A stretch of 64,000 bases of DNA, taken from the NCBI GenBank assembly GCA_016930255.1, contig JAFGHB010000004.1, positions 1,444-65,443 on the forward strand, read 5' to 3'. A program made the position numbers and the translations under genes. The DNA is from Methanomicrobia archaeon. Lineage in GTDB: Archaea > Halobacteriota > Syntropharchaeia > Alkanophagales > Methanospirareceae. The notes under the pieces were generated by a model. It did no database searches. It saw only the letters and a program-made list of their open reading frames with translations, and was not told the DNA's origin. Below, piece after piece: positions 48,103-64,000 of the stretch; position 1 is the first letter of the stretch; the number at the start of each line of letters is the position of its first letter.

Positions 48103-49236
48103 ATGAAAAACGGCAGTATTAGTCGTGCGCTGATGAAGGGCAGTGTTGTTTGTATGGCACTGTCAGCAGTGATATTGACGCTTTCGACTCCTGCAAACGC
48201 GGATTACACGGCTGATCACCCGTTAACGACCTACGCGCATGATACGATCTACGGAGATCTGATCTATACGATCGGAGATAGCGACTATATGGGTGAACTA
48301 TCTCCCGGGGATATCTACACGGTCTCCTTCGATCTTGACATTCCAGACGGTGCGACGGTAAAGATAGCGCGATTGTATGCTTACTGGACCTGGAGCCACG
48401 CAGGAGAAGAGGGTGTATATCCTGATATGGACGTTACATTCGATGGAGCGGAAGCAAAGTTGGATAGGGAATACCCAGATAGAAAAGGCTCTGGCGATTA
48501 TGACTACCCCAGCGGCACGTATTGCTATGATGTTACCGATCAGGTATGGGGAAGTAGCGTGTATATCACAACGGCTGAGAATAGTGCGACGGAATCGAAG
48601 ACATTTTCGATGGTTGCACTCGCGCTGTTGGTGATCTACGAAGATGCGAGCGGGAAGAAGCGAGAATATTGGCTAAATGAGGGCTGTGACATACTGAATA
48701 TGAAGATAATCGAGCATGCTGAAGATGCGATTACGACCGCCAGGTTTGGTGGGGTAATCGAGAGCGAGGAACTACAAAGTGCGAACTTAGTGACGATCGT
48801 TCCCAGCGGCGATAGGGGTGAAAACACACTTCTGTTTAATGCGGGGATCTGGGATAGCGTTTATACCGGGGATCCGTATGATGATCTTGCCATTGATACA
48901 CGGGACGTCACCGAGTATGTGGTAGCGAAAGATAATATAGCGAAGATCGAAGATGATGGAGACTATTTGGTTCCAAGCGGCGCGTTTTTGGTTGTGACGT
49001 ATAAAGAGGAAGAAGATGAGCCCAGTCCTGTTGTTACACCTATCCCAACCGCCTCGCCAACGCCTGCTGCGTCTGCTACCGCTACACCATCGCCCATAGT
49101 TGCAACGCCTGCACCCACGTTCTCCCCAACACCTTCTCCCCCTACGCCCACTCCGTCCGGCTTTGAAGTCGGCTTTACAGTTGCGGGTTTCCTTATTTTG
49201 ACCCTGTATCACATGAGGAGGAAAAATGAGAGCTAA
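48103..49236 (+). CDS. secreted 'ARLYV.W' (DUF3344-like) domain protein, subtype 1, with P/T linker and PGF-CTERM-like tail
   Basis: Signal anchor. Blocks TVSFDLDIPDGATVKIARLYAYWTWS, YDVTDQV, LALLVIYED and YWLNEGCD. C-terminal PT-rich linker plus PSGFEVGFTVAGFLILTLYHMRRK. Confidence 0.65.
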   Translation: MKNGSISRALMKGSVVCMALSAVILTLSTPANADYTADHPLTTYAHDTIYGDLIYTIGDSDYMGELSPGDIYTVSFDLDIPDGATVKIARLYAYWTWSHAGEEGVYPDMDVTFDGAEAKLDREYPDRKGSGDYDYPSGTYCYDVTDQVWGSSVYITTAENSATESKTFSMVALALLVIYEDASGKKREYWLNEGCDILNMKIIEHAEDAITTARFGGVIESEELQSANLVTIVPSGDRGENTLLFNAGIWDSVYTGDPYDDLAIDTRDVTEYVVAKDNIAKIEDDGDYLVPSGAFLVVTYKEEEDEPSPVVTPIPTASPTPAASATATPSPIVATPAPTFSPTPSPPTPTPSGFEVGFTVAGFLILTLYHMRRKNES

Positions 49237-51463
49237 TAGAACGCTATTTCTCATCACGTTCCTCTGTGTAATTCCGATCTTATTTCTGATTTCCACGGCA
49301 TCAGCATCATCGTTAAGTCGAACCTATACGAAGGTCGGTGGGGATATAACCTGCGATACGGCTAGCGAAATATCGATAAAAGATGAAGTGAATGCAGGCA
49401 ATCCGATATTTGTCGTTTACAAAGGCGAAACAATAGGATTCCTGAATAGCACGGGCGAACTGAGTGGAATACGAATAGACGGGAAATTCACTGCTGCCGG
49501 GTCCCCTTCTTCAAGCAACTTCAAAACCTCCTTTATTTCCGCAGAGTGGGATACAGAAGGCAAGTATGAGGGCTATTATCGATTCTCAGACGATGCGAAC
49601 GGTAATGGAGACTATTTTGAAGCTGAAACGGACAATCAAGGCTGGCTCTCGCTTGATACGCATACCTTCAGATTGAATTTGTATCCCGCAGATAAGACGT
49701 ATGCAGAGGGCTCCTTGAATCTCACGATCGAATCAAACAACAAAGAAGCGGGTTTTATGCAGTTCAGCATCGAATCTGGCGGGCATTCGATACGAGACGT
49801 TCACGGGCACGACATTTATGACATTCCGATCGAGTATAGAGCGGAGACAAAATTTTATAACGTCTCTGAGGATATTTGGGGCATTTCCATCTCAGCAGAG
49901 GGTGGAATCGTGCTGGCGATGTCAGATTTGGACGTGGTGGAGGGGAGATACACCATTGTGCTGAAGGACTTTGCCACCGAGGTTGAGAAGAAGATCAATT
50001 TCGAGATAGAACCGCGAGAGATCGAACTAGATGTAACTGATGAGATCGCAAAGGGCGAGCGAGCGGAGATAGTTGTAGAGAGTGCATTTTCATACAAGGA
50101 AGCGAGATTATTGATCGATTCGCTGGAAAGCCAGAATGCAACGTTAGATGCAGAAGGCGAGAAGTTATTCCTGTGGGATACAGCAACTGCTTCACACGGA
50201 AGGCACGAGCTGCGGATACAGGTAGATGTAGACGGCGATGGTAGATTCGGGGGCTACGAGGACGAAGAGGCATCGTGCTCTATCGAAGTCCTCAAGGGTG
50301 ACGTCACGGTGACAGCACCGGATGAAGTGATACTAGGCGATCCAGTTGTGATAGAAGGGACGTCCACCTATGGCGACTCCACAGTGATAGTAATCGCCGA
50401 TAAATACGTGGACAAGGCAAGAATCTACAGAAACAAGTTCACATACGAATATGAAACCGTGGGCGAGCTGGAAGGGCCGAAGAAGGTCGAGGTGTTCATC
50501 GATGCTTCTGTTGAATTCAGTATCGGCGAGGAAGTCTCGGAGGATTGGAAGCGAAGAAATAAGGCAGACGCGGATACAGAGTTTGCTCTGATCGAGTCAC
50601 AGGAGCTCACCCTGAATGTGCAACCGATAACGGCAAAAGGAGACGATGTTTGGATAAATGGAACCGCAGCAGGTGTAGATAAGGTATACCTGCTGGTATT
50701 GAACCACGAGGGGGGAGTCATAGTTCCGTATGGCACGGAAGCGACGGCTACACCGGTAGATGGAGAGGAAGGGATCTGGGATGAGAAGCTGCTAGAACCT
50801 GATATCGGCACGTATACGGCCCTTGTACTCCATAAGGGGCGGGATGGTGTAACGGATGCAATATACGATGGCTGGTGGGAGATAGGCGATGAATCGAAGA
50901 CCCGGGACCAGCGGATTGCGATACTCGAGGATCGGATAAAGGGCGCGGGTAGTGATGATCTTTTTGTGAAGAAGGACTTTAAAGTTGTCAATCCTGAGGT
51001 CACACTTGAGCTGGAAGATGTCGCTCTTGGTGAGAATCTAACGATTGTTGCACGCACAAACGTAAACGAAGGCGTTACTGCATGGCTGAGTGTGGGTGAA
51101 GAAGGCTCGAATAAAGAGCGGGAGATGAAGACGGCTAAAGTGGAGAACGGGACGATAACGGCAGAATTTGATACCACTGCACTATCTGTGGGGCGCTGGG
51201 AGGTCTGTGTGGACATTCTGGATCGATGTTCGGATATCGGGCTCGTGAATATAACAGCTGAAACCACCGCACCTGCATCGACAGCGATATCAAATGCAAC
51301 GGCTACGCCTTCGCCTTCGCTTACTCCGACTCCAACAATGTCCATACCAGAAGAGAGTTCAGGAGCGCCAATACCGGGTTTTGACTGTCTCGTCTCGTTA
51401 TTAGCGCTGCTCATTACGGTGGCAGCGTATGTGATAAGGGCGAAAGCGAAAAAGTCCTCGTGA
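49226..51463 (+). CDS. large secreted surface protein with PGF-CTERM anchor
   Basis: 745-aa ORF with a GAGGAGG Shine-Dalgarno site. It overlaps the upstream gene by 11 nt. Signal peptide, acidic beta-rich body, S/T/P linker, terminal PIPGFDCLVSLLALLITVAAYVIRAKAKK. Confidence 0.6.
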   Translation: MRANRTLFLITFLCVIPILFLISTASASSLSRTYTKVGGDITCDTASEISIKDEVNAGNPIFVVYKGETIGFLNSTGELSGIRIDGKFTAAGSPSSSNFKTSFISAEWDTEGKYEGYYRFSDDANGNGDYFEAETDNQGWLSLDTHTFRLNLYPADKTYAEGSLNLTIESNNKEAGFMQFSIESGGHSIRDVHGHDIYDIPIEYRAETKFYNVSEDIWGISISAEGGIVLAMSDLDVVEGRYTIVLKDFATEVEKKINFEIEPREIELDVTDEIAKGERAEIVVESAFSYKEARLLIDSLESQNATLDAEGEKLFLWDTATASHGRHELRIQVDVDGDGRFGGYEDEEASCSIEVLKGDVTVTAPDEVILGDPVVIEGTSTYGDSTVIVIADKYVDKARIYRNKFTYEYETVGELEGPKKVEVFIDASVEFSIGEEVSEDWKRRNKADADTEFALIESQELTLNVQPITAKGDDVWINGTAAGVDKVYLLVLNHEGGVIVPYGTEATATPVDGEEGIWDEKLLEPDIGTYTALVLHKGRDGVTDAIYDGWWEIGDESKTRDQRIAILEDRIKGAGSDDLFVKKDFKVVNPEVTLELEDVALGENLTIVARTNVNEGVTAWLSVGEEGSNKEREMKTAKVENGTITAEFDTTALSVGRWEVCVDILDRCSDIGLVNITAETTAPASTAISNATATPSPSLTPTPTMSIPEESSGAPIPGFDCLVSLLALLITVAAYVIRAKAKKSS

Positions 51464-51741
51464 TTTCAGGTAAACGTAAGAAGTCAGCTAACACTTCAAG
51501 GCTCCAAAAATCGCTTTTTGTTTCATCGCTATCCTGAACGAATGCGATAAGAGCTTCTTCTAATCTCATGATTCACTTCTTCCGCTTCATCAGCAGTCAT
51601 CCGGAGTGTCCTTAGCTCTTCTCTCCTTCCGGGTTAAGTTCCTACACGTTTAAAAGGAGTGTGTTGAAGAAAAAACTTCCCGATCCTTTCTTGTGAATTT
51701 TGGTAATTTTTTCGAACTGATGTAATATAAAAGAAATAGGA

Positions 51742-51755
51742 TTTATTAATATTAA
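51742..51755 (+). promoter_or_regulatory. TATA-like box for a probably leaderless transcript
   Basis: TTTATTAATATTAA is centred about 26 nt upstream of the GTG at 51774. No Shine-Dalgarno site lies in between. Confidence 0.3.
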
Positions 51756-51773
51756 ACAACAAACTTCGGTAGT

Positions 51774-53594
51774 GTGGCAACCCGGGATGGAGGTACAGCG
51801 AGCGTGGAAGATAAAACGGCAATCTTGATCGGGATGATAGTGGTCAGTATCGTGTTATTAGTACAGGTAGCAGGTGCGATCTATTCGTTTGACGGCGTGC
51901 CGTACCCGGACAAGCTCGATGAAGTAGCTCATGGCACATTGAAAGGTGGCGTCTATGTGGGTGAGAGTCGTGGGCTCGGCTTCACGCCGTATGAGCAGAC
52001 TTTTGAACTGCCTGACGGGGTTACGGTTAAGTGGGCGCGGCTATATGTTGGCGTCTGGGGAGGTACTGAGCGCTATGAGGGCTGGGTGCAGACGACGTTT
52101 AACGGGGATGACCTTGGCAAAACGTTCTTGAAAGGCATCAATGACGATAACTCCCATGTATATTGCTCCAGTCATGGTGGCTACTGGGTCTATTACGATG
52201 TCACGGACAAGGTTATACCGGGCCTCAATACGGGAATCGCAGAGACGAGCCGAGGTGAAAAGGGCAGTAAACTGGATGGCCGCGTCTACGGCATCATCCT
52301 CGCCGCCGTTTATGAGGCTGATAACGGGCTGGAAACCTCGTACTGGGTCTGTGATGGCAACCCAAGCCTGCACGGGATGGGCTGGGCTGGCACCACCCCC
52401 TCGATCAATGATCTCGTATCCGTGGACTTCCGCAGTGAGATTGACCCCGCGAATATTAACGCTGCGCATCTCACCGTGACGTATCTTGCTGGCAATATCA
52501 AAGAACCCGATTATCTGGAGTTCAACGGTCATGAGATAGGCGGGAATGACGTGGCCAACAACGAAGACGACGAGACCTATGGGATTGATCTCAAGAGCTT
52601 CGACGTGACGCAGTATACTCAGGCTGAAAATCGGCTCCGCTTCCTCAGAGGTAAAGACGTCAACGGGGACGGCATTATAGACGCAGATGACGAGGGTAAC
52701 CTGGAGGGAGAGTATTACCTGCATCCTGTTCTCGCGGTTCTTGCTGTGGAACATAAAACCCCTGAAAAGACTGCTCCCGATTTTACTGTCCAACTCGACT
52801 TCGGAAACCTGACCGAAGGCGCGAATACGCTTCGTGCGGTGGTGAGCAATGACGGGCGCCTGTACGAGGACGACGTACGATTAAGCGTGTTCGTTGACGA
52901 TTCTGAGATCTATGCTGATGCTGTTCGTATGGATGCCAGTGGCATCAAAAAGACGACCATTCCATGGAACGCCCTATATGGATCGCACACAATCAGAGCG
53001 GAAGTTGACGCAGAGAACGCGGTGCAGGAATTGAACGAAAACAACAACATCTTCAGTTCTGATGTTCATATCGGTGGCAGCCCTGATGTGTCTGTACGGA
53101 TTCTGACGCCCGTGCGTGAGCAGAACGGCGCGACAACGGCAAGCGGTATTGTAACAGCGTGCTCTGGGTTAATCGGTGTTCTCCTCTTACTTTTTGCTCT
53201 ATTATATTGCAGACGGGATACGAGAAGACTTCACGAGGTTCTCGTAATCCTTGCCGTTCTCAGCGTAGCGTTAGTGACCTGCGGCTGCGTGGATGAGCAA
53301 TCCGGAGGAAAAAATCCCATTGGTGGTAGTATGCTCAAGTATTCGGTTCCTGTTGAACTCACCAATGAGGGAGAGCTGCCCGCAGCGGACTTTGAACTCG
53401 CGCTCTACATAGACGATGAGAAGAGCGCGCTTACCACGATAGAGCGATTAGAAGGCGGTACTTCGTTCACAGCGGATTTTTCCATCGTGGTGACGGAAGG
53501 AACGCACACCTTAAAAGCAGTCGCAGATGAGAGGAATGGGCTACAAGAAACCAGGAGGGGTAACAACGTCGACGAAATTACCTTCGATTTTTAG
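51774..53594 (+). CDS. 'ARLYV.W' (DUF3344-like) domain protein, subtype 2, fused to CARDB-like domains with an internal TM pair
   Basis: 606-aa ORF (GTG start uncertain). Blocks FELPDGVTVKWARLYVGVWGG, YYDVTDKV and YWVCDGN, then a CARDB-like unit, two hydrophobic segments (53146-53290) and a last CARDB-like unit. Confidence 0.6.
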   Translation: MATRDGGTASVEDKTAILIGMIVVSIVLLVQVAGAIYSFDGVPYPDKLDEVAHGTLKGGVYVGESRGLGFTPYEQTFELPDGVTVKWARLYVGVWGGTERYEGWVQTTFNGDDLGKTFLKGINDDNSHVYCSSHGGYWVYYDVTDKVIPGLNTGIAETSRGEKGSKLDGRVYGIILAAVYEADNGLETSYWVCDGNPSLHGMGWAGTTPSINDLVSVDFRSEIDPANINAAHLTVTYLAGNIKEPDYLEFNGHEIGGNDVANNEDDETYGIDLKSFDVTQYTQAENRLRFLRGKDVNGDGIIDADDEGNLEGEYYLHPVLAVLAVEHKTPEKTAPDFTVQLDFGNLTEGANTLRAVVSNDGRLYEDDVRLSVFVDDSEIYADAVRMDASGIKKTTIPWNALYGSHTIRAEVDAENAVQELNENNNIFSSDVHIGGSPDVSVRILTPVREQNGATTASGIVTACSGLIGVLLLLFALLYCRRDTRRLHEVLVILAVLSVALVTCGCVDEQSGGKNPIGGSMLKYSVPVELTNEGELPAADFELALYIDDEKSALTTIERLEGGTSFTADFSIVVTEGTHTLKAVADERNGLQETRRGNNVDEITFDF

Positions 53595-54585
53595 TGGCCT
53601 CGTGCTCGCACTCAGCATCTTTGCTGTCCTGGCCGTCACTATCATGCCCGTCGTGGGCTCGTATGCGGGAGACAAACCGCTGAGCACGGTTGCGCACGAT
53701 GAAGTTCGTGGCACTGTCGTATTCACTCTTGGCGATAGCACCTACAGCGGACAGATATCGTGTAATGATTCGTACACCGTCAATTTTGATACCTCTACGG
53801 TAACGGCAAAAGACGTAAAACTCGCGCGACTGTACGTCTACTGGGTTTGGAGCCAGAAAGATAACGTCGGCGTGTATCCTACACTGGAGGTATCTGAAGG
53901 AACGGAAGTTTTGAATCCGCTCATAACCTATACGGATACGAAAGGCTTTGTCGGGAAATATGATTACTTCTCCGGTGTTACGGTCTACGATTGCACGGTA
54001 ACGCTGCCCATGAATTCAGATTCCTATTCGGTTACCGTGAAGAACATGGATGCGAACGGAAGCACGTTCAGTGTGCAAGGAATCGGTCTGCTGGTCGTAA
54101 CCGAGTGCTCAGAAGGCGATCAAGATTGCCCGTTCATCGAATACTGGATCAACGAGGGCTGCGACATGATCTATGCAGAATACGGAATCACCCCAGAGAT
54201 GGCCATCAGCACGAGTTATTTCAATGGAGCTGTGGACGTGGAAAATGTAGAGAAGGCGTATTTAATCTCGGTGGTTCCCTCAGGCGGTTACGTATCTGGC
54301 GGAGAGAAGGCGCATAATTCGCTTTACTTTAACGAAGAGCGCGGATGGCTCGAGGAGCTTCCCTTCCTGAAGCAACTGCTCCGATTATTGTTCGGCCTTG
54401 GCGGCGGGGTCTGGAATGACGTGTATATTGCCGATAGCATGGTTCAGATCGGAGTTGATCAGCGTGATGTGACCAATCATCTGAAAGCCTCGAACAATTT
54501 CGCCGCGATTCAGGACAATCACGATTATATGATGGTGACCAACGCGGTGCTGGTGGTGGAGAAGAGCGGGGACGGAAGGAAATGA
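53527..54585 (+). CDS. 'ARLYV.W' (DUF3344-like) domain protein, subtype 1
   Basis: Signal anchor. Blocks TVNFDTSTVTAKDVKLARLYVYWVWSQ and YWINEGCD. Its stop overlaps the ABC ATPase start (ATGA at 54582-54585). The exact start (53527 or 53536) is uncertain and overlaps the upstream gene. Confidence 0.6.
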   Translation: MRGMGYKKPGGVTTSTKLPSIFSGLVLALSIFAVLAVTIMPVVGSYAGDKPLSTVAHDEVRGTVVFTLGDSTYSGQISCNDSYTVNFDTSTVTAKDVKLARLYVYWVWSQKDNVGVYPTLEVSEGTEVLNPLITYTDTKGFVGKYDYFSGVTVYDCTVTLPMNSDSYSVTVKNMDANGSTFSVQGIGLLVVTECSEGDQDCPFIEYWINEGCDMIYAEYGITPEMAISTSYFNGAVDVENVEKAYLISVVPSGGYVSGGEKAHNSLYFNEERGWLEELPFLKQLLRLLFGLGGGVWNDVYIADSMVQIGVDQRDVTNHLKASNNFAAIQDNHDYMMVTNAVLVVEKSGDGRK

Positions 54586-55265
54586 CCGTTGAGACCCGGG
54601 GGTTAACGAAACATTATCGTATGGGCGACGAGAACGTAGTGGCGTTAGACGGTGTGGATTTGAAAGTAGAAGACGGCGAGTTTATTTCTATTGTGGGCCC
54701 TTCAGGCTCCGGGAAATCAACGTTTTTACATGTCGTCGGATGCCTGGACGCGCCGACGGCGGGTGAGGTGCATTTTAATGGCGCGCGGGTGGATTACAAC
54801 AATAAACAGTCTCTGGTGCTGTTACGGCGACAGTTTATCGGGTTCGTCTTTCAAACCTTCAATCTGATACCGGCGTTGAATGCGGTCGAGAATATCGAGT
54901 ACCCGCTCTATTTCACGAAGGATAATAAGAAGAAGAGTAAAAGCGAACGGAGAGAGCGTGCGAGGAACCTCTTGTCCCTAGTAGGTCTTGAGAACCGTGC
55001 AGAGCACCTCCCTTCCGAACTTTCCGGCGGTGAACTGCAGCGGGTAGCGATCGCACGTGCCCTTGCCAACGATCCGAAGCTTATACTGGCCGACGAGCCC
55101 ACCGGCAACCTCGACTCGAAGACCGGGCAGAGCATATTGGATTTACTCAAGCGGTTAAGCACCGAAGATGAGAAGACGATTATCATGGTAACGCACGATC
55201 TAGCATCGGCGAAGCGGATGAGCATCGTAATCGGAATATTGGATGGGAGACTTCAGCGGCTATGA
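54582..55265 (+). CDS. ABC transporter ATP-binding protein (MacB/LolD-type)
   Basis: Walker [10 protein letters not shown], signature [15 protein letters not shown], Walker [12 protein letters not shown]. Confidence 0.9.
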
Positions 55266-56482
55266 TGGAATTATTCTCATTAGCAGCTCGGCAGTTAACG
55301 CGGAAGAAACTGCGTGTATTCCTCATCGTGCTGGGAATTGCCATCGGGGTCGCGGCGGTAATTGGCGTCACTTCTCTGGGCGAAGGAATCCGTGTTCAGG
55401 CGGTTGAGCAGATCAAGGCCTCATACGATCTCACGACGATCGAGGTTTCCGCAGGCGTCTCAGAAGAGAGCGTAACTCTGATTACCAATTCGAAAGTCTC
55501 TGCGATCGAATCGACTGCTCACGTTGCATTTGTCGCCCCGTATGTCGAGGACTCGTACGTCACGCGGAATAATACGTATCTCGCAGTAAAAGGGATCTCG
55601 CCGGACTATCTACAGATCCGTGGCCACAGCTTGCAATTGGAGCAGGGAACGTGGTTTGATGAAACTGCTGAGGGTACACCTCTGCCGGTTGTGCTGGGCT
55701 ACGATGTCGCCAAGCGTTTAGCGTTGATCGAGGGCTTAGAGCTGGGTGACGAGTTTACAGTGAAGCTCAGACTGTACGGCGAGGAAGGGCGTCCGTTGGA
55801 CAAGACGACAGCATTTGTAATCGTAGGCGTACTGGAATCCGCGGGGGATGAGCATGACAATCAGGTCTTCGTAGAAATTACAGAGGCGATGGCACTGGAT
55901 GAGAAGGATGCGTATGATGGTCTGGTGGTAAAAGTAGACGACCCTGCATTTGCCGCTGCGGTGCGCGAGCTGATAAAGGATCTGGGCCTGTCGGCGCACT
56001 CCGCGCAGGATGTCATCGACGAGGTGAACCGTCTGATGGTGGCGGTAACACTGGTGTTGGGTTTCTTTTCCGGTATTTCCCTTGTTGTCGGCGCGCTTAT
56101 GGTGGTGAACACGATGATCATCTCGGTTTACGAGCGAACAGGCGAGATCGGACTCTCGAAGGCGTTAGGCGCATCGGACTTTGATATTATGAAGCTGTTC
56201 CTCGCGGAATGCGTGATAATAGGCGTTATCGGTGGCATTTGCGGCGATCTGCTCGGCATGGGCTTCTCAGTCTTGATAGACCTCGTCGGCAAGCCCTTTC
56301 TGGTCAGTGCACTCGGCGGAAGCATCGGTGCGAATCTCGAAGCAGGGAGCATCACCATCGTGACACCCACAATACTGGTCGCGGGATTCGCCATCTCGCT
56401 CGTGCTTTCGGTTGTTTCCGGGCTGTATCCCGCGCTGCGTGCGGCGCGCTTGAACCCGTTGGACGCGTTGCGGCAGATCTGA
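55262..56482 (+). CDS. ABC transporter permease (FtsX/MacB-type)
   Basis: 406-aa ORF with ATGA overlap with the ATPase gene. N-terminal TM, ~230-aa external domain, C-terminal FtsX block (IGLSKALGASDFDI...ALRAARLNPLDALRQI). Confidence 0.85.
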   Translation: MMELFSLAARQLTRKKLRVFLIVLGIAIGVAAVIGVTSLGEGIRVQAVEQIKASYDLTTIEVSAGVSEESVTLITNSKVSAIESTAHVAFVAPYVEDSYVTRNNTYLAVKGISPDYLQIRGHSLQLEQGTWFDETAEGTPLPVVLGYDVAKRLALIEGLELGDEFTVKLRLYGEEGRPLDKTTAFVIVGVLESAGDEHDNQVFVEITEAMALDEKDAYDGLVVKVDDPAFAAAVRELIKDLGLSAHSAQDVIDEVNRLMVAVTLVLGFFSGISLVVGALMVVNTMIISVYERTGEIGLSKALGASDFDIMKLFLAECVIIGVIGGICGDLLGMGFSVLIDLVGKPFLVSALGGSIGANLEAGSITIVTPTILVAGFAISLVLSVVSGLYPALRAARLNPLDALRQI

Positions 56483-56763
56483 GAGTCTTCCTATCTCTTT
56501 CACAATAAAAATCTATTTTGTATCTTTTAGTGTTAACAATAACTATTTAAATATAAATTGATTTTAACAATCTACCTAATGGTGTTACCAAGGCGGTGCG
56601 GGCAAAGGCGGCGGCGATGATGGCGACGCGGAAGTGATGCGCGCGAGGCCCCGTGAAAGGTCTGTATCGTATAAAATGGCTGGAATGCACCTGAACAGGC
56701 GAGAAGAAGAAACGCGCCGAGGAGGGGCGCGCTACAAGTACCCAAAAAAGGAGGTGAAAAAGA

Positions 56764-58020
56764 ATGAGACGATTGAGTATCGCAGGCGTGGAGGCAGCAT
56801 GTGTAATCCTAGTCATTCTATGCTCGCCCACACTGGCACACTGGGACTATGACGGTTATCAGCTTTCCACGAGTTCACAGGGCGCGGTCTATGGCGGCGC
56901 TTATATAAGTGATGGCGACAACCACAACGCGGGTTTTGGTGAGACCTATGTGACAAACTTCAGCGTACCCGATGGCACGACCCATTGGGCGCGACTCTAT
57001 GTCAGCGTGTGGGGCATGAATGAGTATAACACCGGCTGGGTGAATACCACCTTCAACGGGCATACCTATCAACCAATCTTCATCAACGGCACGAATGACG
57101 ATAATCCCTCCGTCTGGGGCGCAGGTCATGGCGTCTGGTGGATATACTACGATGTAACGAACACTATTACACCAAATACAAGCAACCAGGCACTAGTACA
57201 GAGAACACTTGGCGATAGGATTCTCCGGGTAATACTCGTGGAGGCCTATAACGATACTGATGGCTGCGGCTTCATTACCTACTACTGGGTAAACGATGGC
57301 AACGTGAATCTGCATTACAATTATTCGACGGGCTATGAGTGGGATCGTGATTCTAGCACTACGTGGTTCAACGGTACCAGCGAGGAGATATGCTCGGCCG
57401 AATTGTTCACTGCACACTACGGTGGAGGCAATGCTTGGGGTGGTGCGGAGCCGGATTACCTCTACTTCAATGCCCCTGAAGCATATCACCGTCCCAACCA
57501 GATCGGGGACGACGGGAACGAGACGTGGGGAGACGACGATATAGCCGAGAATCTCTTGGATATGCTCACTTTTGATGTCACCGCTCTCGTAGAGTCCTCA
57601 GGCAACAACGCGACCTTCTGGCGCGGGCACGATGATAATGGCGATGGCTGGATCTATCACAATGCGAGTGTTGCCGAAATAGAGGGCGCGGAAGGCGAAG
57701 CGTACGTGCATCCCATACTGGCCGTGCTCACCGTGAACTCAACAAAACGTTACCTGACGAAGGACATGGTGGGCAGTGTACCAAACATCTTCAGCATTCC
57801 AACGGTAGACAGCGAACCAATTAGCACCGCATTGTCTTCAATAGAGCCGTACTACACGTACATAAACCGCTATAACTCAACCACGCAAACCTGGGAGATT
57901 TACAACAAGAACCTACCCTTCCCACCGGTGAGTAAGTTCACGACAATAGACCAGGGAATCGGCTATCAAGTAGCTCCGAATAGCGCTTGCGCGCTCACAT
58001 GGACATCATCGGGTAGTTGA
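56764..58020 (+). CDS. secreted 'ARLYV.W' (DUF3344-like) domain protein, subtype 2
   Basis: Strong GGAGGTGA Shine-Dalgarno site and a signal peptide. Blocks FSVPDGTTHWARLYVSVWG, YYDVTNTI and YWVNDGN, plus a ~100-aa unassigned C-terminal extension. Confidence 0.65.
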   Translation: MRRLSIAGVEAACVILVILCSPTLAHWDYDGYQLSTSSQGAVYGGAYISDGDNHNAGFGETYVTNFSVPDGTTHWARLYVSVWGMNEYNTGWVNTTFNGHTYQPIFINGTNDDNPSVWGAGHGVWWIYYDVTNTITPNTSNQALVQRTLGDRILRVILVEAYNDTDGCGFITYYWVNDGNVNLHYNYSTGYEWDRDSSTTWFNGTSEEICSAELFTAHYGGGNAWGGAEPDYLYFNAPEAYHRPNQIGDDGNETWGDDDIAENLLDMLTFDVTALVESSGNNATFWRGHDDNGDGWIYHNASVAEIEGAEGEAYVHPILAVLTVNSTKRYLTKDMVGSVPNIFSIPTVDSEPISTALSSIEPYYTYINRYNSTTQTWEIYNKNLPFPPVSKFTTIDQGIGYQVAPNSACALTWTSSGS

Positions 58021-58041
58021 AACAAAACGATTCTTCCTCCC

Positions 58042-58053
58042 TTTTTATTTTTT
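58042..58053 (+). terminator. oligo-T tract (archaeal-type terminator candidate)
   Basis: tttttatttttt lies about 20 nt after the stop at 58020. Confidence 0.3.
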
Positions 58054-58229
58054 CCCGCTTGTGGGGTGCAAATCTGAAAAATGGAAGAGAAAAGAGAAAA
58101 CGGAAAATCATGTCCCTACGTGGTGCAAATCCTCGAGGGGGCAAAGTAAAAAGCCGGGGCTAAAAGGAGAGAACTTTAGTCTCGGGTTTTACGAAGGTCA
58201 AAAAAATTAGGAGGTGAAAATGAGAAAAG

Positions 58230-60752
58230 ATGAAGCATGAGACGCAGAGAAAAATTGCACTACCGGCGATTGTACTGCTGGTTGCGATCGCATTCACTGC
58301 TTCGCCTGTATCCGGAGTAGCAACGAATTTGCACGGGTATGGGTTTTACGAAGATGATTCGCCGGCATACTTTGATTCGGTGCGCATAATCAATACGAAC
58401 ACGGGCGTGGAATGGAATGATACGTACTTTGCGACAGGCCATCCTCAGGTTACGTTATGGCAAAATTACTACCAAGTGGCACTAGATGACCCTCTTGATG
58501 TTCAGGTTGGTCACGTACTGAGATACATTGCTACAAATGGGACATGGACAAACGACTCAACGGCAACGTATACTGGTTTTGACTTCGAATACAACATCAA
58601 TTTTACTCGGACGCAGCCAGACATGCCAGACCTGATCGTGGAGAGCATCACGCCAAATTGTGGCGGTTATCTCTTCGGAAACGAGAGCAACGAAATCTGT
58701 GCACTGATAGAGAATAACGGCACAGGCGCAGCAGGTGCCTTCAACGTCAGTTTCGAGGCGGGCGCCTTCAGTGAGCAGGTACGAGTTACCGGCGGCTTAG
58801 CCGCAGGTGCGAATACGACGGTCTGCGTCACCGATCCAACGCTCAGGAATGCTGGCGAATCGGTCACGATTAATGTTACTGCGGACTGCAATGGCGAAGT
58901 TGACGAAGGTGCCAATGAAGGCAACAATGTGGCAAGCATAACCAAGACCGTCGTGAATAACGGCTATAAAGGGAAACGCTACACCGGTGGGAGTGACATC
59001 ACCACCTGGCAAACGTTCGAGCTCAAGGGCGACCTGCTGTATTCAGTCGGCGACAGCTACTATCTGAGTGCGTATTCTTATCCCGACTGGACGCACTACA
59101 CGGCCAACTGGACCGCGAGCGACTTGCCGGTTCCGGGCACGGCGACGGTAAAAGAGGCACGACTGTACGTGCCGTACACGTGGGCGAAGAATAACGTGAT
59201 GCTAGGTTATATGAACCTCACGTTCAACGGTAATCTGCAGACACTGGATTACCACTACTGGGATGAGAAAGGATACGGTTCCAGCTATCCCTACGGAACG
59301 CTCGTCTACAATGTAACCGCGGACTTCAGCACGAGTGGCAACCTCGCTGATCTCGCCAACTCCTATCCAGGCGGCGGGCAGGTATCCATGCGCGGCATGG
59401 TGCTCGTCGTGATCTACGAGGACGATAACGAACCACTAAGGAAGATACTGGTCAACGAGGAGTTCGATCTGCTCTACGGCGGCTCGTCACAGTGCACGAC
59501 GGCGGAAGAAGCCACGGCATACGCACCATTTGGCTCGATAGACCTTTCAACGATTGGTAGTGCCAAGCTAATAACCATGGCGCCCGGTGCGGGTCCGAAC
59601 GAAGGCGAGCTGATCTTTAACGGGCAGACCTGGACCAACGTCTGGAATTACGCAGGCAGTGCGCAAATCGGCATTGACGAGCGTGAAGTAGGTTCGTATC
59701 TGCAGGCGACGAACAATACCGCAGGGTTCCAGAGCAGTGGCGACTACATGGAAGCGAGCAATGCGATACTGGTACTTACAACGCCACCAATCATCAGCGT
59801 CGAGCCAGAAGAGACGAATGTCGCACCGCAGAGCCAGTTTGACATCGAGATAATTGTCAATCCAAATGGTGCACCGGTGTACGGGGTTGAGTATTATCTC
59901 AACTATGATCCGAGCGTGGTCCGAGCAGAGGTGCAGAACAAAGGGTCGTTCCTCGGCGGGCTTGATGACACGATCGTGATGGTCAACGAGATAGATCAGG
60001 TGAACGGCAAAGTGACCTATGCGGAGACGCGAAAAGGCTCCGGAGGTGTGACCGATCCGGCCCCCCTCGCTACGATTCAGTTCACGGCAATCGGCGCACG
60101 CGGCGCAACGAGCGATCTGGACCTTGACGGCGTGATCATCGTCAATGCGGCGGACAACGAGTCCTTTGCGGTCATTAAGATCGAGGATGGCAACGTTACA
60201 ATAGGTGACAACGTACTACCACCCGTTGCCTCGGCCTGCTCGAAGCACAGAATCAACAACGCCGCAAAGAAGTTCCAGTGCTCGGCGCTGCTCTGTTCGA
60301 CCTCTTACGACCCCGATGGCGAGATCACGTATCTCAGATGGGCGTTCGGCGACGGTCAATACGGAACCAGTGAGGGCAACGTGAGCGGCTGCGCTTGCAA
60401 GGAGCACAAGTACGAGTCATGGCAATGGGTCGGGGGTTCAAGCGGGCACTACGAGCCGTTCAGCGCGTCTATTACCGTAATCGATAATGCCGAACCTGAA
60501 CAGAGCGACACCTACGCATTCCCGGTTACCGTCTATATGGCGGGAGATGCGAACGGCGATGGGCGCGTGAATATCCTCGACGCCGTGCAGGTGGGCAAGA
60601 ACTTCGGCCAGAGCTGTCCGGGCGGAGAAGCGTGCGGCGAATACAAGTGGAGTAACGCGCAAGCGGATGCCGCAGACCTGAACAACGACTGCGAGATAAA
60701 CATTCTCGATGCCGTAATCATCGGAACGATGTGGGGACACACCGCCTGGTAA
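58230..60752 (+). CDS. secreted multidomain protein: novel N-domain - CARDB - 'ARLYV.W' (DUF3344-like) - cohesin - PKD - dockerin
   Basis: 840-aa ORF. N-domain HGYGFYEDDSPAYFD...TGVEWNDTYF..GHPQV.LWQNYY. CARDB (PDLIVESI...ENNGTGAAGAFNV). ATVKEARLYVPYTW. Cohesin-like ISVEPEE...YGVEYYLNYDP...IQFTAIG. PKD (SYDPDGEITYLRWAFGDG). Two dockerin repeats, GDANGDGRVNILDAVQVG and ADLNNDCEINILDAVIIG. Confidence 0.75.
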   Translation: MKHETQRKIALPAIVLLVAIAFTASPVSGVATNLHGYGFYEDDSPAYFDSVRIINTNTGVEWNDTYFATGHPQVTLWQNYYQVALDDPLDVQVGHVLRYIATNGTWTNDSTATYTGFDFEYNINFTRTQPDMPDLIVESITPNCGGYLFGNESNEICALIENNGTGAAGAFNVSFEAGAFSEQVRVTGGLAAGANTTVCVTDPTLRNAGESVTINVTADCNGEVDEGANEGNNVASITKTVVNNGYKGKRYTGGSDITTWQTFELKGDLLYSVGDSYYLSAYSYPDWTHYTANWTASDLPVPGTATVKEARLYVPYTWAKNNVMLGYMNLTFNGNLQTLDYHYWDEKGYGSSYPYGTLVYNVTADFSTSGNLADLANSYPGGGQVSMRGMVLVVIYEDDNEPLRKILVNEEFDLLYGGSSQCTTAEEATAYAPFGSIDLSTIGSAKLITMAPGAGPNEGELIFNGQTWTNVWNYAGSAQIGIDEREVGSYLQATNNTAGFQSSGDYMEASNAILVLTTPPIISVEPEETNVAPQSQFDIEIIVNPNGAPVYGVEYYLNYDPSVVRAEVQNKGSFLGGLDDTIVMVNEIDQVNGKVTYAETRKGSGGVTDPAPLATIQFTAIGARGATSDLDLDGVIIVNAADNESFAVIKIEDGNVTIGDNVLPPVASACSKHRINNAAKKFQCSALLCSTSYDPDGEITYLRWAFGDGQYGTSEGNVSGCACKEHKYESWQWVGGSSGHYEPFSASITVIDNAEPEQSDTYAFPVTVYMAGDANGDGRVNILDAVQVGKNFGQSCPGGEACGEYKWSNAQADAADLNNDCEINILDAVIIGTMWGHTAW
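58317..58472 (+). repeat. conserved nucleotide core of the triplicated N-domain (copy 1)
   Basis: Alignable to 62169-62325 and 62875-63031. It includes the shared run acgggcgtggaatggaatgatacgtacttt. Confidence 0.7.
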
Positions 60753-60822
60753 GCTGTTCTGCTACGCCACAAGCAATGCATCCCCATCATACTAGATGTG
60801 CATAACCCTTTAAAAATTTCCC

Positions 60823-60836
60823 TTTTTCCTTTTTTT
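60823..60836 (+). terminator. oligo-T tract (terminator candidate)
   Basis: tttttcctttttttc lies about 70 nt after the stop at 60752. Confidence 0.3.
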
Positions 60837-60946
60837 CGGGGAGGCAGGAAAGAAACTGAACTGTGAAATAAGAGCGTGTGAGGATGAAAGAGCAGCAAAG
60901 AATCGAGGATCTCTCGGTAATTGAGATGAAGGAGGAGGAAAAATAA

Positions 60947-62077
60947 ATGAAAGAAGAGAAGATAAGATTGATAGGATTTGTCGTAGTAGTGGTGTTAAGT
61001 CTGGTGGGAGGGTCAATAGCACAAGCCGCAGCACAAAGCGCCTCGATAAGCGTTTCCCCCTCAACGGTCGAGGCGTCTCCGGGCGAGACATTCAGAATAG
61101 ACATTAGCATTGACCCCCACGATTTGGCGATTTCCGGCGCTCAGTTCAATCTCTATTTCGATCAGAACGTGCTCAATGCCACTTCTCAAACTCAGGGTAC
61201 CTTCCTCGCTCAGGACGGCGCAACCACAACCGTGATCACAGACACCATCAACAACAGCCTTGGAAGGATAGAGTACGCCGAAATCCGGCTGGGCGCGGAG
61301 CACGGCGTAAGCGATCCCGGTGTTTTCGCATCTATTACGTTTGAAGTCGTTGGAACGACGGGGATGAGCAATCTGAAATTGAGCAATGTGATTTTAAGCA
61401 ATCCAGACGGCGAATCTATTGAAACCACGATCAACAGCGGAACATGCACCGTAGCTACCAGCGCGTCAGACTCCGACACGTCCGGCTCCTCTTCCACTTC
61501 CACGCCCACGGTAACGTACGTTGATATCTCTGCTGAAGAGGCACAGGAAATGCTTGCAGAGGACCCCGAACACGTTACCGTTTTGGATGTCAGAACAGCC
61601 GAGGAGTACAATGCTGAGCACATACCCGGAGCGAAATCCATACCCTTATCAGAGCTAGAAGGCAGAATTGACGAGTTAGACCGATCAGAGGATATTATCA
61701 TTTATTCTCAGAGCGGCATTGAAAGCAGAACCGCCAGTGAACTACTGGTAGACCAGGGGTGCGAAAACGTCTACAACTTGCTCGGTGGCATAGATGCTTG
61801 GAGGCTTACGTTTCCGGTAATAATCCCTGGTACTTCACCTTCACCCCCTGTGGCCACACCTGAATCCGATGTAACGCCCTCGTCCGAGTCATCGTCACCC
61901 CCAGCTCTTTCATCCTCTCCAGCGGCCTCACTGACGTCAACGGCCCCGCCCTCATCTGCCAACTCTCCCTCAACGCCGCCTTCAGAGCAGCATGAGGGTA
62001 TACCGGGATTTGGGGCACCTCTAGCGCTAGCTGCGGTGGGGCTAGCTTTTGCTCTGTGGAGAAGAAGAATGAGATGA
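60947..62077 (+). CDS. secreted cohesin - rhodanese-like (Cys->Ser) - PGF-CTERM protein
   Basis: Signal peptide. Cohesin-like ISVSPSTVEASPGETFRIDISI...GAQFNLYFDQNVLNA...ITFEVVG. Rhodanese fold VLDVRTAEEYNAEHIPGAKSIPL...IIIYSQSGIESRTA...LLGGIDAW. S/P linker and terminal GIPGFGAPLALAAVGLAFALWRRR. Confidence 0.75.
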   Translation: MKEEKIRLIGFVVVVVLSLVGGSIAQAAAQSASISVSPSTVEASPGETFRIDISIDPHDLAISGAQFNLYFDQNVLNATSQTQGTFLAQDGATTTVITDTINNSLGRIEYAEIRLGAEHGVSDPGVFASITFEVVGTTGMSNLKLSNVILSNPDGESIETTINSGTCTVATSASDSDTSGSSSTSTPTVTYVDISAEEAQEMLAEDPEHVTVLDVRTAEEYNAEHIPGAKSIPLSELEGRIDELDRSEDIIIYSQSGIESRTASELLVDQGCENVYNLLGGIDAWRLTFPVIIPGTSPSPPVATPESDVTPSSESSSPPALSSSPAASLTSTAPPSSANSPSTPPSEQHEGIPGFGAPLALAAVGLAFALWRRRMR

Positions 62078-62784
62078 CTGTACGGAATCGAGCAGTAAAA
62101 GGACGAGCACTCACTATCGTTGCGATCCTGTCAGCACTTGTCTCTGCGGTTTTGCCCGTATCGGCGGGAGTAGCCACGAATATTCACGGGTATGGGTTTT
62201 ACGAAGATGGATCACCTGCATACTTTGACCATGTTGCGGTAACCAATACGAGAACGGGCGTGGAATGGAATGATACGTACTTTGGGATAGGGCATCCTCA
62301 GGTTGCGCTATGGCAAAATTACTACGTTCTGACCTTGGATGAGCCGCAAAATGTTCAGGTTGGTGACGTCTTGACGTTCCACGCGGTAAGCGGAAACAGC
62401 ACTTCAAGTAACATCTCGCAGACCACCTACTCAAAACTTGACCTCGAATATAATATCACGCTATCGCAAATTTCACCACTTCCTTCGACGCAGGCGCACA
62501 CATTGTCCTTGAACCACAGCTCAAGCTTAAGTCCAAGCCCAAGTCCAAGCCCAAGTGCTCCTCCATCTTCTTCACCTCCTTCTATCGAAGAGCATTCCTC
62601 CCGCTCATCTTACACCTCACCTCCTCTAAGCGCACCGACACCAGAGACTATATCCTCTCCTTTAGCCATAACACCTCCAAGGCCAACATCGGTGCAGAGC
62701 GGGTTACTACCGGGATTTGAAGCCTGCTTTGCACTACTGGTGTCGGTGACGCTATTTTTCATTCTGCGCCGAAAGAGGCGATGA
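62074..62784 (+). CDS. secreted novel N-domain protein with S/P linker and PGF-CTERM anchor
   Basis: ATG 62074 overlaps the upstream stop (ATGA) and follows GGAGAAG. N-domain HGYGFYEDGSPAYFD...TGVEWNDTYFGIGHPQVALWQNYY. Terminal LLPGFEACFALLVSVTLFFILRRKRR. Confidence 0.6.
   Translation: MTVRNRAVKGRALTIVAILSALVSAVLPVSAGVATNIHGYGFYEDGSPAYFDHVAVTNTRTGVEWNDTYFGIGHPQVALWQNYYVLTLDEPQNVQVGDVLTFHAVSGNSTSSNISQTTYSKLDLEYNITLSQISPLPSTQAHTLSLNHSSSLSPSPSPSPSAPPSSSPPSIEEHSSRSSYTSPPLSAPTPETISSPLAITPPRPTSVQSGLLPGFEACFALLVSVTLFFILRRKRR
62169..62325 (+). repeat. conserved nucleotide core of the triplicated N-domain (copy 2)
   Basis: Contains aatacgagaacgggcgtggaatggaatgatacgtactttgggatagg, identical to copy 3 over this stretch. 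Confidence 0.7.
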
Positions 62785-62788
62785 AAAC

Positions 62789-64000
62789 ATGAATGGAGAA
62801 GCGAGAAGCGTCGTAATCACAACGGTCATGTTCGTATCCCTGATAGGGTTAGTGGTATCTCCGGCTTTAGCAGGCTTAGCCGTGAACTTCAATGGATATG
62901 GGTTCTTTGAGGACGGCTCACCTGCGTGGTTCGACGCGCTCAGTATAACGAATACGAGAACGGGCGTGGAATGGAATGATACGTACTTTGGGATAGGCCA
63001 TCCTCAGATTGCGTTATGGCAAAATTACTACGTCCTGGCCTTAGACGAACCGACCAATGTTATCACGGGGGATGTCCTCGAGTATGTGGCCACGAACGGA
63101 ACAGGGACGAACATCTCGTATCTGACCTATGACCCGGCTATTACGGGAATGAACCCCGAACATGACATCACGTTTCAGCGAGCACCGGAAAAGCCGAGAA
63201 TAAGTGTTAGCCCGGCGAAGCAGAATCTCTCGATCGGCGATTCGTTCACTATCAACGTAACCATGGATCCCGCGGGCACCGAGATCTACGGGGCACAATT
63301 CTTTTTGGACTTCGACCAGAACGTTCTCAACGCCACTGCTCAAACTTCAGGGACGTTCCTCGCTCAGGATGGCACCACGACCATTGTGATAATAAACAAG
63401 ATCAATAACACGATCGGTAGGATCGAATACGGCGAGACACGATGGGGCGTGGAAGATGGCGTCACGAACCCTGGTACGCTGGCATCTATCACCTTCAAAG
63501 CAGTTGGATCCGGAACGAGCGATTTAAACTTGAATAATGTGATGGTAAGTGATTCCAACATCTCAAGTGTAGCAACTGACAGTAGCAATGGGAAGGTGAT
63601 GGTGGAGGGACCCACACTCTTTACCATCTCCGGGTTCGTGACGTACCCCAATGGGACGCCGATTTTCAATCCCTCGATTACGGTAACCAATCTCAATACC
63701 TCGGAGATTCTTAGTGCGAACACGAACGAAACGTCAAACTACTACGCGATTGCAACCGACTCAAATCATGTAAATGCGGGAGCCGTCCTTCAGTTCAATG
63801 CAAGCAATGATAATGCAATCAGTTTCAATCATAGTATAACGCAAGCTGAGATGACCGCTGGCGGATTCGTTCAGAACATCACCATTATCCCGCTGCCACT
63901 GCCCGACCTTATCGTAAGTGATATACTCGCACCACCAGCGTTTGTGGACGTCAGCACTAATGTCTCTGTGGTTATCAAGAATATCGGGAATGCCGCGGCA
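62789..64000 (+). CDS. secreted novel N-domain - cohesin - beta-sandwich - CARDB protein (3' partial, runs off the window)
   Basis: Not in the ORF track because no stop is reached. ATG at 62789 opens a 404-codon frame to 64000. It has a signal peptide, NGYGFFEDGSPAWFD...TGVEWNDTYFGIGHPQIALWQNYY, a cohesin-like ISVSPAKQ...GAQFFLDFDQNVLNA...ITFKAVG, and PDLIVSDI...VVIKNIGNAA (CARDB start). Confidence 0.7.
   Translation, partial: MNGEARSVVITTVMFVSLIGLVVSPALAGLAVNFNGYGFFEDGSPAWFDALSITNTRTGVEWNDTYFGIGHPQIALWQNYYVLALDEPTNVITGDVLEYVATNGTGTNISYLTYDPAITGMNPEHDITFQRAPEKPRISVSPAKQNLSIGDSFTINVTMDPAGTEIYGAQFFLDFDQNVLNATAQTSGTFLAQDGTTTIVIINKINNTIGRIEYGETRWGVEDGVTNPGTLASITFKAVGSGTSDLNLNNVMVSDSNISSVATDSSNGKVMVEGPTLFTISGFVTYPNGTPIFNPSITVTNLNTSEILSANTNETSNYYAIATDSNHVNAGAVLQFNASNDNAISFNHSITQAEMTAGGFVQNITIIPLPLPDLIVSDILAPPAFVDVSTNVSVVIKNIGNAAA
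62875..63031 (+). repeat. conserved nucleotide core of the triplicated N-domain (copy 3)
   Basis: See copies 1 and 2. Confidence 0.7.

Follow-up and report, generated by a model that had tools for sequence, protein, structure and literature searches.

ATP-binding cassette (ABC) systems of type VII form a class in which cytoplasmic ATP hydrolysis moves an extracytoplasmic domain of the permease, acting on a dedicated partner (PMC5985334; PMC12646458; PMC8333309; PMC7668044). All four type VII systems of Escherichia coli use such an extracytoplasmic partner, namely EnvC, LolA, MacA-TolC and TesA (PMC12646458; PMC5985334). In the present report, we discuss a locus at positions 48103-64000 of a 64,000-nucleotide stretch of DNA, hereafter the window, from contig JAFGHB010000004.1 of a Methanomicrobia archaeon (Methanospirareceae). 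To our knowledge, no role has been assigned to any type VII ABC system of archaea. The locus carries eleven open reading frames (ORFs) on the + strand, numbered here G1 to G11, the last of which runs off the window. Two secreted DUF3344 proteins (G3 and G4) are encoded together with the ATPase and permease of a MacB-type ABC pair (G5 and G6). Gene order points to the operon G3-G4-G5-G6 as the functional unit, after which there is usually a further DUF3344 gene of subtype B such as G7. We put at about even the chances that its products constitute a type VII ABC mechanotransducer acting on DUF3344/CARDB partners in the surface layer (S-layer) space. An initial annotation, made from the sequence alone, had described eleven same-strand genes, nine with a signal or anchor sequence and two forming an ABC pump. 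The ORFs, including their starts, and their hydropathy agree with it: nine of the eleven products begin with a hydrophobic signal or anchor, none is seen in G5, and G6 displays the 1+3 transmembrane MacB topology. Additional C-terminal helices are found on G1, G2, G9 and G10.

G5 (54582-55265, +) is an ABC ATPase of the LolD/MacB/FtsE group (ABC_tran, 111.7 bits) with intact Walker A, signature and Walker B motifs, catalytic Glu and H-loop (VTHD is read in G5). Its nearest solved structure is MJ0796 of Methanocaldococcus jannaschii, a textbook ABC ATPase structure, matched over the full length (E 3e-70), followed by LolD and MacB; the nearest solved permeases and ATPases of the pair also include the pneumococcal antimicrobial peptide resistance pump 5xu1. 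G6 (55262-56482, +) has the layout of a type VII (MacB-type) permease: a first transmembrane helix, a MacB_PCD extracytoplasmic domain of ~220 residues (106.4 bits, aa 20-240) and three FtsX helices (67 bits, aa 268-399), with hydrophobic segments at residues 16-40, 258-290, 309-333 and 364-389. Among PDB chains it matches MacB (5gko, E 3e-30), then YtrF, LolF, LolE/C and FtsX. None of the models defining the described systems reached its cut-off: the LolCDE equivalogs scored 239 against 307.75 bits (TIGR02211) and 110 against 362 bits (TIGR02212), the FtsEX models 194.5 against 264.85 bits (TIGR02673) and 26-52 against 225-255 bits (FtsX), the MacB equivalogs likewise fell below, and so did all NCBIfam equivalogs for G5. 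No MacA-type adaptor (HlyD family) or outer-membrane duct is encoded by the eleven genes or by the upstream genes examined back to position 36134, and PADLOC detected no known defence system in the locus, only generic ABC similarity. By these comparisons, G5/G6 represents its own kind of type VII ABC system.

A second, unrelated type VII cassette is present further upstream in the window (37966-41622, +). Its ATPase (37966-38679) and MacB_PCD+FtsX permease (40369-41622) genes enclose that of a CARDB/NPCBM_assoc beta-sandwich protein (39012-40349, +), anchored by its signal and by a C-terminal helix, an arrangement that fits a general archaeal pairing of type VII motors with beta-sandwich ectoproteins. 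The gene on its 3' side (41847-42422, +) encodes a secreted repeat protein rich in Glu and Gln, which weakly matches Metal_resist (Spy/CpxP-like).

The four core genes are tightly packed. G3 (51774-53594, +) opens the operon and overlaps G4 (53527-54585, +) by up to 68 nucleotides (nt), and the G4/G5 and G5/G6 overlaps are 4 nt each. The conservation of this order was followed in a genome scan with one genome per species, which yielded 79 loci (labelled L001 and so on) that were searched by tblastn with G1-G11. Their labels are those of anaerobic methanotrophic archaea (ANME-1 and ANME-2), Methanoperedens and Methanosarcina(ceae), joined by broadly labelled metagenome-assembled genomes ('Halobacteria', 'Methanobacteriota') and by three unexpected ones, Bathyarchaeia, Nanoarchaeia and Nitrosotalea. 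A G4 orthologue occurs in 42 loci at 46-81% identity. Where there is room for it, a G5 orthologue starts no more than 300 nt downstream (35 of 38 loci); 29 of 31 have a full-length gene of the G3 type ending immediately upstream; and G6 is found within 3.5 kb in 22 of 34, the exceptions belonging mostly to the genus Methanosarcina. The order G3-G4-G5-G6 is kept in ANME-1, ANME-2a, Methanoperedens and Methanosarcina, and the DUF3344-ABC linkage, whose restriction to this genome would have spoken against the system first proposed, is thereby conserved across four lineages. By contrast, a MacB-type match accompanies only one of the 38 loci containing other DUF3344 paralogues alone; the ABC link is therefore specific to the G3 and G4 types. 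Annotated contigs display the cassette in three genomic settings, those of L084, L085 and the window, and these differing contexts indicate that it moves as a unit. In its minimal form (L084), it comprises a G4-type gene, the ATPase, the permease and a subtype-B DUF3344 gene. The latter occupies the G7 position after the permease in L010, L017, L034, L036, L039, L084 and L085.

Within ANME-1, the scanned loci share 59-78% identity for G3, 64-81% for G4, 74-85% for G5 and 74-84% for G6, and metagenome proteins reach 92% for G4 and 86% for G6, so that G6 spans 74-86% in this group; the accessory DUF3344 genes mostly remain at 31-36%. The closest named relatives of G4 and G6 (64-81% identity) are Methanophagales and 'Candidatus Methanospirareceae' (ANME-1), which makes an ANME-1 origin of the window almost certain. 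A word-index search with G6 returned only orthologues of at least 53% identity. In ANME-2 and Methanosarcina loci, adjacent divergent ABC-ATPase matches, 31-35% identical to G5, were also observed at a distance of a few kb from DUF3344 genes (L001, L021, L022, L025-L028, L030, L033, L037, L039, L040, L044, L052, L054, L058, L063 and L067). In M. barkeri (L001), the annotation treats this pair as a single fused double ABC ATPase, with a CbiQ/EcfT-type gene beside it. NikR and energy-coupling factor (ECF)/CbiMNQO genes likewise stand beside DUF3344 genes on Methanoperedens plasmids (PMC9674854). A link with metal uptake was considered on account of this NikR/ECF/CbiQ context and set aside as lineage-specific synteny, the module being missing from the window and from the other ANME-1 loci.

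Two features of the secreted core proteins accompany this gene order and, as far as sequences and the literature tell, are new: an internal lipobox in G3 and an insertion restricted to G4. G3 consists of a signal peptide, a DUF3344 domain of subtype B (aa 47-326), a CARDB domain, an internal membrane hairpin and a C-terminal CARDB domain (aa 522-599). The internal element (aa 453-510; 53130-53303, +) reads as a hydrophobic helix, an RRDTRR basic cluster and a second helix closing in a lipobox-like LVTCGC. The same succession of helix, basic cluster and second helix, ending in [LFTAC][SCG][GA]C and followed by a CARDB domain of 96-104 residues, recurs in 29 of 30 G3 orthologues, most of which present the canonical LSGC or the near-canonical FSGC. 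Compared with the pattern expected of a lipobox (basic n-region, h-region, [LVI][ASTVI][GAS]C), 29 of 30 have [GA]C after the h-region, at an internal instead of an N-terminal position. Since the second helix of the hairpin ends in this motif, the C-terminal CARDB domain of G3 is probably lipid-anchored. The sole orthologue lacking hairpin and lipobox, that of G37ANME1 (L018), comes from one of the few loci without downstream ABC genes, a coincidence that is suggestive, albeit a single case. G4 is a short secreted DUF3344 protein of subtype A. Its orthologues (46-92% identity in ANME-1, ANME-2a, Methanoperedens and Methanosarcina) have a cleavable signal with consensus PASA|SYAGDKPL and no anchor once the signal is removed. 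All 33 orthologues compared carry an amphipathic insertion of 20-23 residues (WLEELPFLKQLLRLLFGLGG in the window) that is not found in G1, G3, G7 or G8. In G4 itself it is a helical element of 23 residues, EERGWLEELPFLKQLLRLLFGLG (aa 270-292; 54334-54402, +), modelled by AlphaFold (AF2) as helices 274-277 and 279-289.

The domain shared by G3 and G4 recurs in three other products of the locus, and the five had been described as 'DUF3344-like'. It is in fact DUF3344 itself (PF11824, gathering cut-off 27.2 bits): G1, G3, G4, G7 and G8 score 237.5, 148.8, 207.1, 96.9 and 228.8 bits, with E-values from 2e-27 to 3e-70, and profile positions ~1-275 are covered each time. Aligned over ~270 columns, the five domains share 25 invariant positions, chiefly Gly, Tyr, Phe and Leu with a few Asp and Asn. 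The motifs noticed initially (ARLY, YDVT, YE[DA] and YW.N[ED]G) are visible in this alignment, and so is the split into subtype A (G1, G4 and G8, starting at 48103, 53527 and 58230) and subtype B (G3 and G7, starting at 51774 and 56764). The other subtype A members are 41 and 37% identical to the G1 domain and the subtype B members 29 and 28%. A profile built from the five domains retrieved only 985 clusters among 1.84 billion representative proteins, hence a rare family; many of its members are giant proteins in which the domain is repeated up to seven times over.

The AF2 model of G4, computed on 38 sequences, is all-beta (pLDDT 82, pTM 0.80). As modelled, the DUF3344 fold is one of tandem jelly rolls without a close structural relative. 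Foldseek searches against the PDB and BFVD (viral models) gave only generic tandem jelly-roll matches with TM-scores no higher than 0.36: glycosidase accessory domains, PNGase F, BcsB, CUB, malectin, phage tail proteins and double-jelly-roll capsids. For this reason both a specific lectin or enzyme assignment and kinship with a cellular double-jelly-roll capsid protein were abandoned. G1, used as query, had no sequence match to any solved PDB chain, and neither sequence nor fold searches yielded a catalytic signature or a pointer to a known enzyme or lectin, in keeping with the initial view that the core domain belongs to no such family. DUF3344 was found mentioned in three papers only. One of them counts it (cluster 23) as an ambiguous candidate for the head domain in predicted fibrillar adhesins, with a P-domain-like fold (PMC9210967), and another notes DUF3344 surface proteins on Methanoperedens plasmids (PMC9674854). 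These proteins belong to the same Pfam family as those of the locus and were likewise judged extracellular and of ambiguous function, but the ABC cassette goes unmentioned in both studies, as do the insertion in G4 and the lipobox in G3. Searched by tblastn, G4 had no match in a plasmid collection. Our literature search found no paper describing a DUF3344-ABC system, and the suggestion that the system was undescribed stands.

The genes surrounding the core have different distributions. Upstream, G1 (48103-49236, +) encodes a signal peptide, a DUF3344 domain of subtype A (aa 35-299), a Pro/Thr/Ser linker and a PGF-CTERM-like tail composed of SGF, a helix and a basic end. G2 (49226-51463, +), which overlaps G1 by 11 nt, encodes a signal peptide, ~6-7 beta-sandwich domains, a Thr/Ser/Pro spacer and a PGF motif followed by a helix and a basic tail, and contains 10 N-glycosylation sequons. 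A G1-type and G2-type pair recurs in L005, L043 and L086, in the last case away from the cassette on the same contig. Beside that pair, at L086 1-5456 (-), this other ANME-1 contig encodes a CARDB-DUF3344-CARDB protein longer than 2894 residues. No Pfam domain is recognized in G2, whose 21 homologues, the only ones found, are at least 59% identical, annotated as hypothetical and confined to a narrow ANME-1 clade. Its AF2 model, of moderate confidence (pLDDT 65, pTM 0.35), is a chain of beta-sandwich domains whose top Foldseek match in the PDB is csg, the S-layer glycoprotein of Haloferax volcanii (7ptp_A, E 8e-24 over 767 columns). The next match is at 1e-15, which places csg eight orders of magnitude ahead of generic immunoglobulin (Ig)-like arrays. 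The csg protein is made up of six Ig-like domains and a Thr spacer and has a lipid anchor of the PGF type (PMC8640222; PDB 7PTP/7PTR). Both proteins share the plan of signal peptide, chain of Ig-like beta-sandwiches, Thr-rich spacer and PGF, helix and basic tail, without detectable sequence similarity, and lattice formation by G2 is only putative. Neither the G2 protein nor a G2 profile matched any PDB chain by sequence, and the G2 C-terminus matched S_layer_MEMAR weakly (27 bits against a cut-off of 600). On the strength of its modelled structure, G2 is a candidate, not a proven, csg-like S-layer glycoprotein.

Four PGF-CTERM tails had been announced in the locus. The tripartite tail, made of a Ser/Thr/Pro linker, the motif and helix, and a basic end, is indeed readable in G2, G9 and G10 (PGF) and in G1 (SGF). 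The corresponding models remained below cut-off everywhere and matched G9 alone (16.9 against 18.8 bits for Pfam, 22.5 against 24.5 bits for TIGR04126). No archaeosortase A gene was found among the window ORFs scanned.

Downstream of the permease, G7 (56764-58020, +) is a secreted DUF3344 protein of subtype B (aa 29-324) with 12 sequons and a C-terminal extension of ~90 residues (aa 325-418; window 57736-58020) that has no family match and is kept at full length only in Methanoperedens L036 (48% identity). G8 (58230-60752, +) combines a signal peptide, an unnamed N-domain (~30-130), CARDB (133-236), DUF3344 of subtype A (251-516), cohesin (524-648), a PKD-like region and dockerin (771-831). 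G9 (60947-62077, +) comprises a signal peptide, cohesin (35-169), a rhodanese fold (195-286), a Ser/Pro linker and a PGF tail, and G10 (62074-62784, +) a signal peptide, the N-domain shared with G8 and G11, a Ser/Pro-rich spacer and a PGF tail, besides a Heimdall-CTERM match below cut-off (18.8 against 24 bits). G11 (62789-64000, +, at the window end) encodes a signal peptide, the shared N-domain, cohesin (aa 146-270) and more beta-rich sequence, with 15 sequons. Of the modules proposed in the initial annotation, CARDB (G3 and G8), cohesin (30.1, 50.0 and 32.5 bits in G8, G9 and G11; cut-off 24.1), dockerin (36.9 bits in G8; cut-off 22.9) and the MacB-type pair all pass the Pfam cut-offs. PKD does not, since only 30 residues of G8 match PF18911 at 20.7 against 27 bits. 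The absence of any catalytic domain besides the ATPase had also been claimed, overlooking the rhodanese fold of G9 (73.3 bits; window 61529-61804), which lies extracellularly between cohesin and PGF tail. The claim nevertheless holds in effect, for in the alignment with 3tp9 the active-site Cys is replaced by Ser ('YSQSGIESR' against 'YCrtGgrS') and the catalytic Cys of rhodanese sulfurtransferases is missing.

The unnamed N-domain of ~100 residues common to G8, G10 and G11 (51-54% identity) has no Pfam match and follows the pattern …GYGFYEDxSPAYFD…TGVEWNDTYF…NYY…LD…. Its copies are found at 58317-58619, 62150-62440 and 62880-63170 of the window and at 10364-10663 of Methanoperedens L036, where the domain comes after the G7 orthologue and is the only tblastn match of G10. 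For G9 and G11, tblastn gave no counterpart anywhere in ~80 related loci, contrary to the notion that the cohesin genes belong to the conserved system. The CARDB-DUF3344 core of G8 is 65% identical in L004, and its cohesin/dockerin half has one weak match (26%) on one other ANME-1 contig. Abundant dockerin and cohesin proteins have already been published for ANME archaea, and DUF3344-dockerin/cohesin fusions appear without discussion in the supplementary tables of that study (PMC9012536). G8, G9 and G11 are further examples of these surface proteins, whereas neither DUF3344 nor its link to a MacB-type transporter was discussed there (PMC9012536).

The spacing of the genes suggests five transcription units, G1-G2, G3-G6, G7, G8 and G9-G11: a gap of 310 nt precedes G3, gaps of 281, 209 and 194 nt precede G7, G8 and G9, and G9, G10 and G11 are contiguous. 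Strong ribosome-binding sites were noticed before G7 and G8 (GGAGGTGA) and before G9 (GGAGGAGG), and an Rfam search of the locus returned no RNA element. A TATA-like 12-mer, ACGTTTAAAAGG, occurs with the same flank upstream of both G1 (~47790) and G3 (~51650); this single common element was considered too little to propose their co-regulation. Sequon density is at background level in G1, G3 and G4 (0.2-0.6 per 100 aa), a level that G7, G8, G10 and G11 (2-4 per 100 aa) exceed four- to seven-fold, a contrast that fits a membrane-proximal core and an exposed periphery. On the distributions described above, the 16 kb is a set of juxtaposed modules, at least three (G3-G6, G1-G2 and G8-G11), around the conserved core.

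Outside the locus, a glutamyl-tRNA synthetase gene lies upstream of G1 (46060-47766, -), and between the two ABC regions the - strand carries a small Peptidase_C39-like protein gene (44525-45103) and an unannotated ORF of 199 residues (45290-45889). A 1042-residue Type ISP restriction-modification enzyme with Type_ISP_C, Eco57I and N6_Mtase domains is encoded at 1207-4335 (-). Positions 24001-26000 stand out by a guanine-cytosine content of 0.34, against ~0.50 elsewhere, and contain a 513-residue ORF (24062-25603, -) with no Pfam match, possibly foreign DNA. The remainder of the window is ordinary housekeeping.

How might the core operon work? In the mechanotransduction reading, ATP hydrolysis by G5/G6 would shift the G6 ectodomain and so perform mechanical work outside the membrane, with no transport through the bilayer. 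G4 would be the free secreted partner, its amphipathic helix being taken as a docking or lipid-contacting element. G3 would be held in the membrane by the hairpin whose second helix closes in the lipobox, and its presumably lipid-anchored C-terminal CARDB domain may be cleaved off. The motor would then extract, position or release membrane-tethered DUF3344/CARDB proteins beneath the S-layer, amounting to envelope assembly or maintenance. The other genes would supply outward-facing cargo or neighbours, namely G1 with the csg-like G2 and the glycosylated, cohesin/dockerin-bearing products of G7-G11, fast-evolving and variable between genomes. We infer from these features that the ABC complex touches G3 and G4 and that G3 is lipidated and cleaved, and likewise in which direction and to what end the mechanical step would work. 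The pump had already been suspected of powering assembly or release, and gene order now lets us infer this role with more reason than before.

A more specific version would make the cassette an archaeal counterpart of Lol: the MacB-type motor would pull lipid-anchored surface proteins from the cytoplasmic membrane and G4 would carry them to the S-layer canopy, its amphipathic helix shielding the lipid. The cargo would be the lipobox-bearing CARDB of G3, perhaps also PGF-processed G1 and G2. We regard it as a long shot; if true, such a route would be the first energy-driven protein-sorting step to be described beyond the archaeal membrane, and DUF3344 would gain a function.

Several observations weigh against the mechanotransduction reading. 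The function it proposes is drawn from gene order and sequence features only. By the survey of neighbourhoods, the DUF3344 domain does not need a motor, as most DUF3344 proteins have no ABC neighbour. The gene order itself can break: in the genus Methanosarcina, the permease is separated from the ATPase, lying within the same cluster but ~10 kb upstream and with a subtype-B DUF3344 gene after it, and G37ANME1 (L018 8323-11122, contig PQXB01000001.1) keeps G3-G4 without adjacent ABC genes, ornithine/diaminopimelate decarboxylase and radical S-adenosylmethionine genes standing 3' of them in place of the ABC pair. The lipobox of the window G3 (TCGC) is non-canonical, and lipoprotein-signal models match the element weakly, below cut-off. 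The 'lipo-invert' anchoring model NF058595 (cut-off 37 bits) gave 20.3 bits for G3, 19.7 for one orthologue and no match for four others, so that G3 was rejected as a member of that family. The literature provided no characterised precedent for an internal lipoprotein signal. Lastly, the structural matches of G4 are generic and its fold, as modelled, is silent on what is bound or moved.

Four other explanations of the locus were weighed. G5/G6 could be an efflux or defence pump comparable to MacB, Spr0694-0695, BceAB or HrtBA, clearing the membrane or the sub-S-layer space of a small molecule, lipid or antimicrobial peptide, with G3 and G4 as accessory binding or adaptor proteins. The nearest solved permeases and ATPases do include MacB and 5xu1, and we counted in its favour 'antimicrobial peptide ABC transporter', which we take to be the database name of such genes. 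We nevertheless judge it unlikely, as the locus lacks any MacA/HlyD-type adaptor, two-component sensor or regulator, and it would be unusual for a resistance pump to be so tightly co-conserved across orders with two secreted proteins and translationally coupled to them. A quite improbable alternative is an FtsEX-like activation, in which DUF3344 would be a double-jelly-roll enzyme modifying glycans or proteins in the manner of PNGase F or GH172, switched by the ABC pair and remodelling the S-layer or its glycans. Weak Foldseek matches to carbohydrate-active jelly rolls, among them PNGase F, PNGase Bb and GH172/DUF2961, speak for it, together with the invariance of D311, D333 and N269 and the near-invariance of E193, E210 and D213; the searches for a catalytic signature reported above speak against it.

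The initial annotation had interpreted all eleven genes as one self-assembling adhesion or matrix structure, held by cohesin and dockerin and with the pump as its motor. In its favour, the genes run in one direction, their products were all counted as extracytoplasmic, G8 has both cohesin and dockerin, G9 and G11 carry cohesins, and DUF3344-dockerin/cohesin fusions recur in ANME genomes (supplement of PMC9012536). The four gaps of 194-310 nt, however, divide the locus into five units, and near the cassette elsewhere G9 and G11 lack counterparts, G10 has one and the cohesin/dockerin part of G8 is limited to its 26% match. Moreover, G1-G2 is found away from the cassette and the minimal cassette of L084 is without cohesin or dockerin genes of its own. 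Only G3-G6 and the subtype-B DUF3344 gene after the permease travel together, which makes a single dedicated apparatus very unlikely. It is most improbable, finally, that the ABC pair and the DUF3344 genes are mere neighbours left unseparated by descent and sharing no function. The lineages concerned are related (Methanosarcinia and ANME-1) and the order is breakable, as in Methanosarcina and G37ANME1. Such a view has to contend with overlapping frames, three distinct genomic contexts, an ABC link restricted to the G3 and G4 types and, in L018, a hairpin lost where the ABC genes are missing.

The cassette matters in several respects. It supplies an archaeal type VII system with defined candidate partners and is common to the genetically tractable Methanosarcina, so that the hypothesis is open to knock-out. 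It adjoins what may be the S-layer gene of an ANME-1 clade and is part of the surface inventory where uncultured methane oxidizers meet their syntrophic partners. The internal lipobox of G3 would be a sorting signal at a position unprecedented within our literature search. Compared with the lipobox lipoproteins of the AliA/AliB pathway (PMC12462473), the G3 element shares the arrangement of n-region, h-region and [L/F]-S-G-C, but lies ~480 residues inside the protein and straight after another membrane helix, its lipidation and cleavage being only predicted.

Set beside MacAB-TolC, LolCDE-LolA, FtsEX-EnvC and YbbAP-TesA, the G5/G6 pair is alike in the layout of its permease (first transmembrane helix, MacB_PCD and three-helix FtsX) and in its intact LolD/MacB-class ATPase. 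As in the described type VII systems, genes for dedicated extracytoplasmic proteins adjoin it (PMC12646458). It differs from them in its archaeal single-membrane host and in its partners, which would be jelly-roll proteins of the DUF3344/CARDB type with no homologue of MacA/TolC, LolA, EnvC or TesA. The kind of system, a type VII ABC motor with a dedicated ectoprotein, is known; what is new is the family its partners belong to, the lipobox inside G3, the lineage of the host and the setting at the S-layer.

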